A stretch of DNA of 64,000 bases from a virus (taxonomy: Duplodnaviria > Caudoviricetes), in the IMG/VR virus record IMGVR_UViG_3300031867_000001, positions 96,001-160,000 of that record; one strand, 5' to 3'. This document shows, piece by piece, positions 99 to 62,365 of the stretch. The stretch's first letter is position 1, and each line of letters opens with the position of its first letter. The translations under genes were made by a program, and so were the position numbers. The notes below the pieces were generated by a model that was given only the letters and a program-made list of their open reading frames with translations, did no database searches and was not told the DNA's origin.

Positions 99-680
99 TT
101 ATACTTCTCTGAATTCACATGTGATGATATGACCAACCATATTCACCAGGCGTGTGATTGTTGTAATAGACACAACCAATGAATCATGATCTGCAGTCTG
201 TTGGTACTTCAAAGTGAATTGTGCAACATTATTCGAGATGGTTTGTTTCAATACTTTCGACATATCTTTACGAATCATCTCTGGGGTGATCTTGAAATAC
301 TCAATGACATATTCGTACAACCGATTGAATGTGGGGTTGGCTGTTTTGTACACCCATTCTTCAATCACATCAGACATATCCGGTGTGAATAATGTGATAA
401 CACATGCGATGTTCGGTTGTTTGGCTTGTACTGTCTTAAGCAGTTCCCCAAGTTTTGATTGTGACATTGTATTGGTTGATGAATTCAACATTGTCACGAA
501 TTGATCATTGAGAGATGTTTTGTGAATCACATCTGTCTCAACTGCTTTACAGAATGCAGACATGATGATATCACACGCACATTTCTTGGACGTGTCTATG
601 ATGATATTTTCACTCACCATATCCTTTAAGTGTTGGATGGCGGATGGAGCCATCAATGCTCTTGCTTCTTCAAGTGTCAT
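99..680 (-). CDS. Hypothetical phage protein (~193 aa)
   Basis: ORF track 99..698; the ATG at 680 (MTLEEAR) is preceded by SD AAGGGAG. No recognisable motif. Confidence 0.75.
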   Translation of the reverse strand: MTLEEARALMAPSAIQHLKDMVSENIIIDTSKKCACDIIMSAFCKAVETDVIHKTSLNDQFVTMLNSSTNTMSQSKLGELLKTVQAKQPNIACVITLFTPDMSDVIEEWVYKTANPTFNRLYEYVIEYFKITPEMIRKDMSKVLKQTISNNVAQFTLKYQQTADHDSLVVSITTITRLVNMVGHIITCEFREV

Positions 681-748
681 ATAAAATACTCCCTTCAAAA
701 TATATTCATATGTTTAAACCCATGAATGGGATTACACTGGTAATTAAT

Positions 749-947
749 CCAATTTGAACATTGTGATGAGTTTGCGGTTGTTTGGTCGGAAGTAGCAGCT
801 TCCGTATTTATTTGATTTTAATTATTTGCGATTATTCGCAAATAATGATACTGCCAGTAGTATCCGGAATATAAATTTCTTCCATGAAATATCACTTCCT
901 TTCACACGGAGAATTCCACTCCGTCAATTTCACAATGTTCAAATTGG
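749..947 (-). ncRNA. Candidate structured RNA or structured 5' leader with an 18-bp closing stem and five internal hairpins
   Basis: CCAATTTGAACATTGTGA (749-766) is the exact reverse complement of 930-947. Internal stems: ACGGAG/CTCCGT, ATTTC/GAAAT, GATACT/AGTATC, ATTATTTGCGA/TCGCAAATAAT, CGGAAG/CTTCCG. Lies just downstream of an early-promoter-like motif. Confidence 0.6.
832..885 (-). CDS. 17-aa small ORF MEEIYIPDTTGSIIICE inside the structured RNA
   Basis: ATG 885 to TAA 832, preceded by GAAAGGAAGTGA, the same SD type as the gene starting at 23879 (AAGGAAGTGA). Confidence 0.45.
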   Translation of the reverse strand: MEEIYIPDTTGSIIICE

Positions 948-1015: not shown

Positions 1016-1038
1016 ATCGGGGGCTTAAAGCCCCCGAT
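1016..1038. terminator. GC-rich hairpin terminator
   Basis: ATCGGGGGCTT-A-AAGCCCCCGAT, immediately after the stop of the 2347-aa gene. Confidence 0.75.
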
Positions 1039-1043
1039 ATAAA

Positions 1044-4000
1044 TCATAATAATTGAATTGGTTCGTAATTATTGAATGTTACATGAACATACAATTTCCG
1101 ACATGTTTCTGGTATATGGATTCTTACTCCTGTACGAATACATGGAATGATGAATTTTGTCCTACTGATATTGGATATATCTCCTGCAATAGAATCAGAC
1201 AGATACAACATGACGTATTTCTTATAAGACCCAGTTAAGAATACATCAAATTCACCATTTGTATTCTTCGTATAATGGATTCTGATATATTCATTAATCG
1301 GAATGAATGTATCGTCTTTATGTGTCATTGGGAATGTTGGATCTGTTAATATCTCATATCTGTATGCATGGTCATAAATATGAATCATATCTTCAATTGG
1401 CATTTCAGATAAACCAATATCATCGGAAGTTGGATGATACAACTTCATGTCATTGATGGTTGGTACATGATTGAAATCGTTGTAATTTGTTGATGTTACT
1501 TCATTTGAGAGAATTGTATCTAAGATATCATCTTCCAAATCTTGATTGTTTGGATCTGGGACAAACATCTTAGAGTAATTCTGTAATGTGGTATGTTGGT
1601 ATGGATACATATTGAATGTATATTGAATGTTTTGAGAAATGATCATGTGTTGTAATGCTTCTTCATAATTTGCATATACCGATCCATCGTTTGCAACATA
1701 TACTGTATTTGTATTCATCAACAATGTATCACCAAAATCATCAACAAGTTCAATCAGTTCAAAGTTCTTCAATGATGTTAAACCGATCAATTGGAATGAA
1801 CTTGGAGAAAGAATAATGAGATGTTCTGTGTCTTTGATTTGTCTACCATTTACCCAGAATTCATATCTTGTACGAGACAATGGTGTTGGAATATATCCCG
1901 TTACATCAATGAATCCATCTGCTGGAATACGTGATGCAAAGTAACGACATACATGCAAATGATTGGACTTAATCAGTTTGATATTTGGATTGATGGATTG
2001 ATCGATTGTCAAACGTGTTTGAACTGTATTGTTATCCCGCATTGTTGAAATTGGATAACGATATTTAGATGAAGTATTGTAATAATACTCATACGGATTA
2101 TTTACGTTTGAATTGTCAGATTTCATTGTGTCAACGATTGCTCGATTGTATGTTGTATCGAAATCAACCGTTATGATTCCGGATTGTGCAAACTGTATCG
2201 TTGGTTGTAAGATGAATTCATCCGATGGTAAAACATGATGTGGATCCGTGATTTGAATCCATTGTTTGGTAGAACTCATGATATCAACCGAAGATGTTGT
2301 GATATTGATTGTAACCAAACCACCATTACATGAATAACGATGATTGTGGACAACCGTCGTGATATAAGAACCACTGACACTACTTGCCAAAGAAGACTTT
2401 GTAATTGTGATGGTACCGTCACTATTTGTTTTACCAACGAATGTGACATTGGATATATTACCATTGAATCTTCTGGAATCGGGTATTGTGTTTTGTAAAC
2501 AAATCAACGTAATGGTTTCATTTGGTTTGAAATCATTGATTGGTTGATTGATTGTGGTTTCGAATGTTTGTTGTGGTAAACCAACATTGGACATTGAACC
2601 AACAAATGGATTCTTGACGAATAATTTGAATTTGGTATAATCATACGTGGAATTGTTTTGTTTCACAACAATGTCTTTATATCGGACGACCGGTGTGTAT
2701 GGTAACCGTCCACTGTGATGATTGTTTCTGTTAATATAAATGCAATCATCTGTGAATGTCTTATATGGTTTAATGTCATTCTGCAACATGGAGTATGATT
2801 CACCGGAGTCAATATGTTTGCGAATGTAAACGTACTTGTACAAATCATCTTCATGTTGTTTGGATTGGTCAATTGTCAATAATGGTTTGAAACGTACTTT
2901 ACACAATGGCGAATGATCGGGTATGACATTGAAGTATGTTTTATTGTAATAACCCATATAAATCAATATCATGTTAGAATCTGGGAATCCAGATTTTTTC
3001 ATAATTACCAAGAATCTTAATGTGTCTGGAGCTGTGAAGTCATAATCATTGTCATACTTGTAATGTGGATCAATTGATACATATGTTGCATATAACGATG
3101 GGTCAATCCATTCTTTGTGTTCCCAGTCATATAAGAAAATCTGGGTATATGGAACGTCCTTGATTGATGGTTGATATGTGGATGTGACTTGTTGTGCACG
3201 TCCATTCTCGATATAACCCATTGCTGCATCATACGAATCAACATTGTACCACGTTGTCGGATGTTCCTGTTCATCGATATATGATTGCAAACGATAAATG
3301 GTTTCTCGTGTTTCTTTTTGCTTCAACAGATAATTCTCCATTTGTCTGGAATAAATGTCTTTGTCATAATTCGTCGCTTCTGGATCGTTACGTTTGATCA
3401 ATGCTTGTTTATACAATACTTGATATTGATTTAACAATGGAACATATTTTGTATCGATTAAGTCTTGGAAGATACGACGTTCTTCTTTCCAAACATAATG
3501 ATCATTTGGTTCATCACGCAGTATCGGATATTGTTCCGACAATGTTAATGTTGTCCAATTGTGATTGATACAAGTCACATCAATCTGATCATGGAATGAT
3601 GTGTGGTTTACAATCTTATCGTATCCAAGATATTTAAAGTTCCACTTCTTATGTTCATCGTCGATAAATCGATTCTTAACATCTTCGGGGAATAATGCAT
3701 GAAGTCTGGTATAAATGTATTCCGCATTATTCTGAACGAATATTGGATCACCTGGGACGGATAAGTATCCATCTAAATCTTCATCCGAAAATTCAATATT
3801 GTAATTGAAGTTTGGATTGTAGAACGTTCGGTAATCACCATTGTATTCATCCAACAAATTACTCAAATTATCATCCAATACAGTACATTCAATCTCGGAT
3901 GTTAAGAACGTTTCTGCTTCATCAAAGTCGTCAATTGGTAACCACTTTGCATCACGTTCATTGACAACCGCTTCCATCATACCATGCGCTTGTGAATGAT

Positions 4001-62278: not shown

Positions 62279-62337
62279 AATAAAATTCCTCCTTGATAAT
62301 AGATAAGAATAGATTTATATAAAGCGATATTGCTTTA

Positions 62338-62365
62338 TATCATAATAATTATATAAATATGCAAA
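62338..62365 (-). promoter_or_regulatory. Putative phage early promoter
   Basis: TATCATAATAATTATATAAATATGCAAA, a variant of the early motif. Confidence 0.65.

Follow-up and report, generated by a model that had tools for sequence, protein, structure and literature searches.

A putative family of early micropeptide genes on end-clamped mini-mRNAs in an AR9-like jumbo phage from the cattle gut

The longest intergenic gap in a 64,000-nt stretch of phage DNA (hereafter the window; it covers bases 96001-160000 of a virus record that is 250,503 bp long and has terminal repeats) holds a long exact inverted repeat, raising the question of what this element does. Using a simple ORF model, the gap was located at 699-1043 (345 nt, the runner-up being 230 nt). 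As the first-pass annotation had reported, the 18-nt arms of the repeat (749-766 and 930-947) are 100% complementary; they enclose 163 nt. The minus strand of 745-951 folded at -67.6 kcal/mol with the five hairpins described earlier inside the closing stem, well beyond dinucleotide-shuffled controls (z = -8.0 versus 200 shuffles). Since the plus strand of the same region folded nearly as stably (z = -7.2), energy alone is no guide to the strand. An Rfam scan over positions 1-2000 yielded best scores of 15-24 bits against gathering scores of 37-98, which is chance level, and no match spanned the element, agreeing with the earlier remark that it belongs to no known family. Positions 749-947 represent one copy, copy A, of a probable early micro-gene family with seven copies in this uncultured, AR9-like cattle-gut jumbo phage.

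Seven copies of the element, referred to as the cassette, were identified in the phage's own genome by BLAST and an nhmmer profile, at 96.8 (A), 76.8 (B), 182.7 (C), 180.0 (E), 67.5 (D), 66.7 (G), and 32.7 kb (F). Five copies were found in a sister phage, IMGVR_UViG_2061766007_000342 (258 kb), the sole other IMG/VR genome found to carry the cassette; these are g1 to g4 and H, the ortholog of F. A scan with the peptide-coding pattern brought further copies on seven rumen-type metagenome contigs, five of which add new variants (L027 is identical to copy E over the 357 nt compared, and L029 shares the sequence of L026). One additional metagenome match, L024, sits inside an ordinary gene and was discarded as a false positive. 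DNA runs containing the stretch were mostly labelled bovine gut metagenome. A virion protein of the phage has 32% identity to those of AR9/PBS1 and Staphylococcus jumbo phages and, judged by this sequence, the phage is a distant AR9/PBS1 relative.

Outside this circle the cassette was not recovered. Megablast and blastn against 50,697 phage records returned no match to the region, tblastn against the INPHARED phage collection (which includes AR9) no match to the 20-aa peptide, and phmmer against PDB sequences no peptide match; the AR9 genome lacks the cassette (best E = 0.29). Among 185,579 prokaryote genomes, the peptide-coding pattern matched only a Methanogenium MAG, which was treated as a chance match because about 0.5 chance matches are expected by our own estimate from the information content of the pattern. 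Larger proteins carrying the peptide motif were not found in this phage. No description of the cassette family was found in Rfam, phage records, or the literature searched, and it is both a new RNA-plus-peptide family and a novel arrangement of known parts.

The features of copy A all lie on the minus strand and are given in the direction of the ORF. Directly after the end of the upstream 2347-aa gene at 1044, an 11-bp perfect inverted repeat (1016-1038) forms a GC-rich hairpin that is the probable terminator of this gene; copies C, F, H, and g4 have equivalent hairpins ahead of their promoters. The early promoter core ATATATAATTAATTTG follows at 981-996, recognised from a genome-wide motif census and its match to the AR9 early consensus. 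Folding of 660-981 placed a hairpin at the 5′ terminus of the predicted primary transcript (950-981), at the position of which copies B and E carry a stronger GC hairpin. The closing helix, P1, was defined by inverted repeat, fold, and covariation, its 5′ arm covering 930-947 and its 3′ arm 749-766. Within it, the P2 hairpin (906-924; stem ACGGAG/CUCCGU, loop UGGAAUU) is invariant in five copies of the own genome and is followed by an extended Shine-Dalgarno (SD) site, AAAGGAAGUGAU, at 891-902, which the copy alignment gives as AAAGGAGGUGAU in most copies.

The ORF itself runs from 885 to 832 and encodes, in 17 codons closed by UAA, the peptide MEEIYIPDTTGSIIICE; AAAGGAAGTGAT lies 10 nt upstream, and the AUG falls in a hairpin loop of the minimum-free-energy fold, so that the reading, SD site, and looped start noted earlier are all present. 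Inside the ORF, P4 (847-864) pairs the Asp-Thr codons with the Ser-Ile codons in most copies, not all. P5 (821-846) is an inverted repeat whose loop holds the stop codon; over 16 copies its pairing amounts to 96%. An A-rich tract (805-820) then leads into the P6 hairpin (787-804), tract and hairpin being conserved in most copies. Read on the plus strand, the bases of P6 and the A-tract form a conserved intrinsic terminator antisense to the ORF. A conserved, single-stranded C/A-rich linker (767-786; alignment columns 205-225) ends in ...AACUCA ahead of the 3′ arm of P1. Downstream lies a co-oriented 193-aa gene (99-680) which, from the ORF list, Pfam, and its sister-phage ortholog, has no Pfam match and is not functionally tied to the cassette; Pfam was likewise uninformative on ten neighbouring proteins.

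An early-promoter-like motif had been placed about 30 nt before the element, and this position was borne out: the motif lies at 996-981 of the minus strand, and its predicted +1 G, at 981, is 34 nt ahead of the 5′ arm. In AR9, the early-promoter consensus AAATATATATTAT-(6N)-G+1 was mapped experimentally and assigned to the injected virion RNA polymerase (PMC5312081). The motif found here, AAATATATATAAT-TAATAT-G, has approximately 25 sites genome-wide and differs in its AAATATATATAAT part from AAATATATATTAT-(6N)-G by one base; the promoter of copy A has two mismatches to the AR9 consensus, both in the upstream part. Such a motif stands directly before five of the seven own-genome cassettes. Copies D, G, and g1 are without a canonical early promoter, and g2, which follows g1 with no promoter between them, is therefore probably co-transcribed with it. 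P1 begins at +1 or +2 in C, F, H, g3, and g4, while in A, B, and E the 5′-terminal hairpin comes first.

RNA of the cassette is present in public libraries. Three bovine-gut metatranscriptome runs contained contigs of 151-166 nt without any mismatch to copy A (window 764-914, 770-935, and 761-926); the runs represent three study codes, possibly of one campaign, and the contigs are unstranded, have no true ends, and carry no levels. The 2.8-kb flank of copy A gave one 198-nt contig only in the same runs. RNA contigs of copies B and E were also found, and one contig of an E-like copy crosses both P1 arms, indicating that not all molecules are cut at P1. As the contigs carry A-specific sequence, copy number is no explanation for them, and DNA carry-over would cover the flanks too. 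We take this as moderate evidence that cassette RNA is far more abundant than that of its neighbours; the data being contigs rather than reads, no more than a hint can be drawn from the bare flanks or from contigs ending at 761-770. With an AR9-like early promoter, covarying structure, and contigs in RNA libraries, the functional early RNA postulated in the first-pass annotation is supported.

Selection on the ORF was analysed in ten YIPD-type copies over 15 aligned codons. The consensus peptide is MGEIYIPDTxGSIIICE, of which copy A (MEEIYIPDTTGSIIICE) and the others are close variants. Of the 15 columns for each codon position, five vary at position 1, three at position 2, and 14 at position 3. 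Differing codon pairs in frame were synonymous in 250 cases and nonsynonymous in 102, versus 45/320 and 53/313 in the other frames. All four proline codons are used among the copies, and the divergent F-type peptide MGEIITGEEIFLG is identical in F and H, whose ORFs differ only at five third codon positions and by a TAA-to-TGA stop replacement. With start, SD site, and stop conserved and one frame showing the synonymous excess, the ORF is, by its codon pattern, protein-coding and under strong purifying selection. For this reason, the mini-mRNA option is favoured among those first put forward. The encoded peptide is acidic and 13-20 aa long over the family, and two beta-prone hydrophobic runs flanking a D-T-x-G turn suggest a likely beta-hairpin.

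A type I toxin-antitoxin-like system, in which an mRNA locked by 5′-3′ pairing would be countered by a short antisense RNA ending at the internal antisense-strand terminator, is the least probable of the alternatives weighed. The long-range 5′-3′ pairing of P1 recalls a hok-type fold-back, P6 with its T-run would supply the conserved terminator, and a hydrophobic 21-aa ORF occurs in the +1 frame of copy C. This frame is not conserved, however (45 synonymous versus 320 nonsynonymous differences), whereas the conserved one encodes an acidic peptide of insufficient length to cross a membrane. Moreover, an antisense promoter was looked for and not found, the SD site is not consistently sequestered (the accessibility of the cassette's own SD site ranges from 0.07 to 0.80 between copies), and the phage is lytic, with copies under early promoters.

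For the RNA structure, 18 copies were compared, of which 15 sequences aligned in register were used for the P1 pairing test. In short, all share a common plan. In the 5′ part, the terminator of the previous gene is followed by the promoter motif, the P1 5′ arm (in some copies behind a 5′ hairpin), and AAAUUGA. The middle part comprises P2 (loop UGGAAWU), AAAGGAGGUGAU, which we take to be complementary over about 12 nt to the 3′ end of Firmicute 16S rRNA, the start codon, an ORF of 13-20 codons, and P5 with the stop codon in its loop. The 3′ part consists of the A-rich tract, P6, a C/A-rich linker ending in AAC(G/U)(U/C)AUCA, and the P1 3′ arm. Arms were anchored at their inner ends, replacing arm finding by RNAduplex and an all-against-all helix matrix, which were too noisy in AT-rich sequence.

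Following this alignment, P1 was 86% paired, versus 28-41% when the partners were slid by 1-3 columns. Double changes occurred at 17 of 20 pairs, a value reached by 0 of 500 shuffles, and within the helix a clean double substitution, G-C to A-U, separates the orthologs D and g2. P1, P2, and P5 were recovered independently by RNAalifold, with compensatory changes in 18 of 25 pairs. The arms comprise at least seven unrelated sequences, and every 5′ arm pairs with its own 3′ arm. Over the family, P1 ranges from 13 to 26 bp and joins the 5′ end, or a stretch shortly behind it, to a segment about 160 nt downstream; in register, D, E, G, g1, g2, g3, and L022 have at least 22-24 bp, compared with 18 bp for A and 13 bp for B. 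P2 is 91% paired, with double changes at five of six pairs. In P5, many G-C to G-U changes were seen which would be mismatches on the opposite strand; these wobbles fit the sense strand only and thereby support an RNA structure on the ORF strand.

P1 taken by itself gives no signal for the folding strand, as G-U pairs and A-C mismatches are about equally common (12 versus 14), and this leaves room for a role of P1 at the DNA level. A selfish palindromic, MITE-like DNA, or a cruciform or recombination site, spreading among promoters with fold and ORF incidental, would account for that balance as well as for the similar folding of both strands, the dispersed copies present in one sister phage and absent from the other, and a palindrome that in G-type copies reaches a promoter-like box (24-bp complementarity extending into a TATAAT-like box that may precede the start of the RNA). 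The first-pass annotation had named dispersed copies with target-site duplications as the mark of a MITE. Dispersed copies were indeed found, but the cassettes are flanked by direct repeats of 0-3 nt only, without target-site duplications. Furthermore, the arms, with at least seven sequences, do not constitute a conserved transposase site, and it is complementarity that is conserved instead; homology among the copies continues past the arms into the promoter and 3′ flank; and the coding selection on the ORF, the opposite of what neutral DNA would show, and the sense-strand wobbles in P5 both run against this explanation. Differing arms, missing target-site duplications, and similarity beyond the arms indicate a gene family, and the MITE-like reading is accordingly very improbable. 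A search for a reverse transcriptase (RVT_1) returned no match in the 250-kb phage genome, which further disfavours it. A retron msr-msd was rejected for the same lack of RVT_1 and because the genes after the copies are mutually unrelated.

These genes comprise that of the 193-aa protein, a tiny acidic ORF, and those of proteins of 450 aa, 68 aa (hydrophobic), 72 aa (basic), and 152 aa. Immediately behind copy D, as behind its orthologs g2 and L028, comes a strong terminator instead of a gene. In the sister phage, the ortholog of the 193-aa gene (73% identity) has kept the promoter and has no cassette; the orthologs of the genes behind A and C both have an early promoter with a short, cassette-free hairpin leader. 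The reverse was also seen, the gene behind g4 having a cassette-free promoter in the own genome (window 62356), so that the two phages differ in cassette presence at three orthologous promoters. From this presence and absence and the unrelated neighbours, the cassette appears to be a facultative module that sits between +1 and the leader in a range of early genes.

The first-pass annotation had proposed, as one option, a leader peptide controlling the 680 gene. More generally, a cis-acting leader would set the output of the downstream gene when translation of, or stalling on, the peptide remodels the RNA, with P1 and a U/A-rich tract as leaky terminator or attenuator. Five of seven copies have, 30-100 nt downstream, a gene equipped with an SD site of its own, sequence conservation as in this peptide is typical of arrest peptides, the stop codon is within the P5 loop, UUAUUUAU follows P1 in B and E, and, as a weak hint, the copy A RNA contigs of all three runs end at 761-770, inside the 3′ arm. 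Nevertheless, this option is distinctly unlikely: copy D and its orthologs have only a terminator downstream, the genes behind the others are unrelated, the same genes in the sister phage use the same promoter without a cassette and vice versa, and no conserved alternative pairing masks the downstream SD site. For the gene at 680 in particular, the cassette-free ortholog behind the same promoter speaks against the proposal.

The conservation of the P2 loop and the linkers suggests that the RNA has a role beyond coding. P2 is found nowhere outside cassettes, and in g3 its stem has been wholly replaced with the loop retained. Seven GGA motifs had been counted on the minus strand of copy A and taken as a possible sign of a CsrA/RsmA sponge. 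Reading the folded sequence directly confirmed the count; outside the P2 loop, however, the GGAs lie in the SD site, codons, or stems. Under the broader form of this alternative, RNA would be the main product: made early and abundantly, it would act as a decoy or sponge for a nuclease or RNA-binding protein of the host, such as CsrA, RNase III, or a different factor that binds double strands or hairpins, and the ORF would mainly load ribosomes and stabilise the RNA. The survival of the UGGAAWU loop upon stem replacement and its confinement to cassettes, conserved linkers and junctions, the high copy number, and the presence of cassette RNA in libraries from which the flanks are absent all accord with this. 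A CsrA dimer would, moreover, suit a loop GGA and an SD GGA about 17 nt apart. Against it stand the strong purifying selection on the peptide, needless for an ORF that merely loads ribosomes, the P2 loop with GAA instead of GGA in three of 18 copies (G, g4, and L023), and the single conserved loop GGA per RNA compared with the many of CsrB-type sponges. As the main function, a sponge is therefore unlikely, and the CsrA/RsmA version in particular is not supported; given the conserved P2 loop, a sponge or decoy is possible as a second function.

On the most probable reading, the cassette is an early micropeptide gene amplified for dosage and carried on a mini-mRNA with clamped ends. In this scheme, a promoter of the virion-RNA-polymerase type would transcribe the unit, and the RNA would fold into a multi-branched structure closed by P1. 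The ORF would be translated into the acidic peptide, presumably the trans-acting product, at high dose right after infection; a need for such a dose would account for the large number of copies placed behind early promoters. The role of P1 would be that of an end-clamp, hiding both RNA ends from exonucleases and insulating the module. RNase J1 requires a free 5′ end and 3′ exonucleases require a single-stranded tail, so an RNA with paired termini should be long-lived. Strong SD elements act as 5′ stabilisers in Bacillus. Over evolutionary time, the cassette would shift between early promoters as a facultative module.

P1 would probably also be cut by host RNase III. An abundant RNA with helices of 18-26 bp is an expected target of this enzyme, and P1 spans about two double-stranded turns in the seven copies with 22-24 bp or more. 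Searches for dsrm and Ribonucleas_3_3 showed both to be absent from the phage genome; with no RNase III or dsRBD gene in the phage, it is the host enzyme that would act. Cleavage would free a mini-mRNA of about 185 nt with paired ends and leave the downstream message with an exposed 5′ end, which fits the finding of RNA contigs on the cassette and not on the gene at 680. B. subtilis RNase III cleaves long-range (>100 nt) intramolecular duplexes (PMC11780869), and early mRNAs of phage SP82 are classic RNase III substrates, as cited in PMC4838370. Excision by RNase III from P1 is, from these considerations, plausible.

An extension of the end-clamped mini-mRNA reading to a hitherto undescribed class of clamped micro-genes is offered tentatively, as a possibility with less than even prospects. 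Such genes would be mobile, promoter-proximal modules in which the helix makes a translated loop of about 160 nt resistant to exonucleases and may also return the stop codon near the ribosome-binding site. Transcribed in many copies by the injected virion RNA polymerase, they would fill the cell within minutes with an acidic beta-hairpin peptide of 17 residues, whose effect would be to neutralise a host target present in abundance, and the P2 loop would give the RNA a second, protein-binding role.

Several known systems share parts of this arrangement. In T4-type phages, PeSL cassettes, units of a promoter-early and a stem-loop, flank small ORFs and mediate modular shuffling (PMC2839356, PMC4122927). 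Like them, the cassettes described here are repeated promoter-proximal stem-loop units with very small ORFs, present or absent at otherwise syntenic early loci of close relatives. PeSLs, in contrast, are direct repeats bracketing variable cargo and their stem-loop is a terminator, whereas the cassette has one conserved micropeptide as cargo and a long-range clamp helix of freely varying sequence. There is no sequence relationship either, and phage lineage and RNA polymerase differ.

RNase III sites in SP82/SPO1 and T7 and in B. subtilis mRNAs and scRNA (PMC4838370, PMC11780869, PMC1935012) resemble P1 in being long helices in Firmicute-type early phage RNA, or duplexes over more than 100 nt, and the strong SD site just downstream in the cassette could be a 5′ stabiliser after cleavage. 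The known sites are simple intergenic hairpins, whereas the cassette is a clamp around a translated micro-gene and its cleavage is predicted; the 18-bp helix of copy A is, in addition, of borderline length. With RNAIII/hld, SgrS/SgrT, and SR1/SR1P, the cassette shares a short, highly structured transcript and a peptide of fewer than 50 residues, and with hok and aapA1 mRNAs the pairing of 5′ and 3′ ends. It differs from these dual-function RNAs and hok in that its peptide is acidic and not membrane-active, it has no known base-pairing target or antisense partner, it is multi-copy in a lytic jumbo phage, and its SD site is not consistently locked. AR9 early units are alike in their near-identical promoter consensus and G start, and AR9 early transcripts have 5′ UTRs of up to 491 nt for which an unexplained shared motif was reported (PMC5312081). 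Unlike the present phage, AR9 gave no cassette match, and the early leaders inspected were mostly about 40 nt.

The early programmes of jumbo phages are poorly understood, and peptides of fewer than 20 residues are invisible to gene callers. Encoding the same 17-residue product five to seven times per genome under the first promoters active after injection would signal a dose-critical function in host takeover or anti-defence, and we know of no description of such a function for a peptide of this kind. The translated loop with its variable helix of 13-26 bp may be a natural stable, insulated, and portable expression unit for Firmicute-type hosts, a design that may serve synthetic biology as well as the understanding of how RNase III, RNase J, and 5′ stabilisers determine the fate of phage mRNA. 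Gain and loss of the cassette at otherwise identical early promoters provide a clean example of module movement in giant phage genomes. Many cassette-free early leaders also start with a hairpin at +1, and P1 may thus be the same 5′-protective device with a micro-gene in its loop.

The early-promoter motif AAATATATATAAT-TAATAT-G was found genome-wide, at window positions 996, 13480, 48521, 55532, 55602 and 62356 and at about 20 further sites. It differs by one base from the consensus of the AR9 virion RNA polymerase, and it has two upstream variants, TTGAAATTTGAAAT... and TTTTTTATATTT.... Early leaders lacking the cassette (a 13-20-codon ORF within an RNA closed by the long-range helix P1) frequently carry a hairpin directly at +1, as at window ~62315-62340 (minus strand); the sister-phage ortholog of this promoter (L012/L023) bears cassette g4. 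The +1 hairpins of cassette-free leaders may be the same 5′-protective device as P1, or a remnant of it.

Among the other copies, copy C (L003:1448-1647, at 182.7 kb in the genome) uses GTG as its in-frame start. An ATG located 2 nt upstream of this GTG begins a hydrophobic 21-aa ORF in the +1 frame (MWKKFIFLILMVVLLFANNRK), a frame that the other copies do not conserve. In the G-type copies, represented by copy G (L004:644-881) and by those on L022, L025 and L026, a complementarity of 24 bp extends into a TATAAT-like box just upstream, and therefore either the RNA starts farther upstream than expected or the palindrome is partly a DNA-only feature. Copies F (L006:1500-1661) and H (L009:2354-2514, its ortholog in the sister phage) form a divergent subfamily, in which P1, the inner hairpin P2 and the SD site are as in the other copies, the peptide is 13 aa long (MGEIITGEEIFLG), and both P5, the hairpin whose loop otherwise holds the stop codon, and P6 are missing. 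The two phages both conserve this subfamily and differ in it by synonymous changes only.

On the strand opposite the ORF, the inner hairpin P6 followed by a T-run constitutes a textbook intrinsic terminator (window 787-820, plus strand), which is kept in most cassette copies. An antisense promoter serving the terminator at window 787-820 was looked for and none was found.

Further features lie in the regions flanking copy A (window 749-947, minus strand). Within the upstream 2347-aa gene, metatranscriptome run X22 yielded a single RNA contig of 198 nt (window 2431-2628), the remainder of the gene being without coverage; this contig may represent an internal or antisense transcript. The GC hairpin at the end of this gene (window 1016-1045) occurs a second time at genome positions 88818-88851, with 93-96% identity. 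Downstream, at window 660-730 (minus strand), the fold of the predicted primary transcript places the start region of the 193-aa gene, including its AUG, within a hairpin of its own. This gene is separated from the cassette by a small CCCAU/AUGGG hairpin with UUU directly after it.
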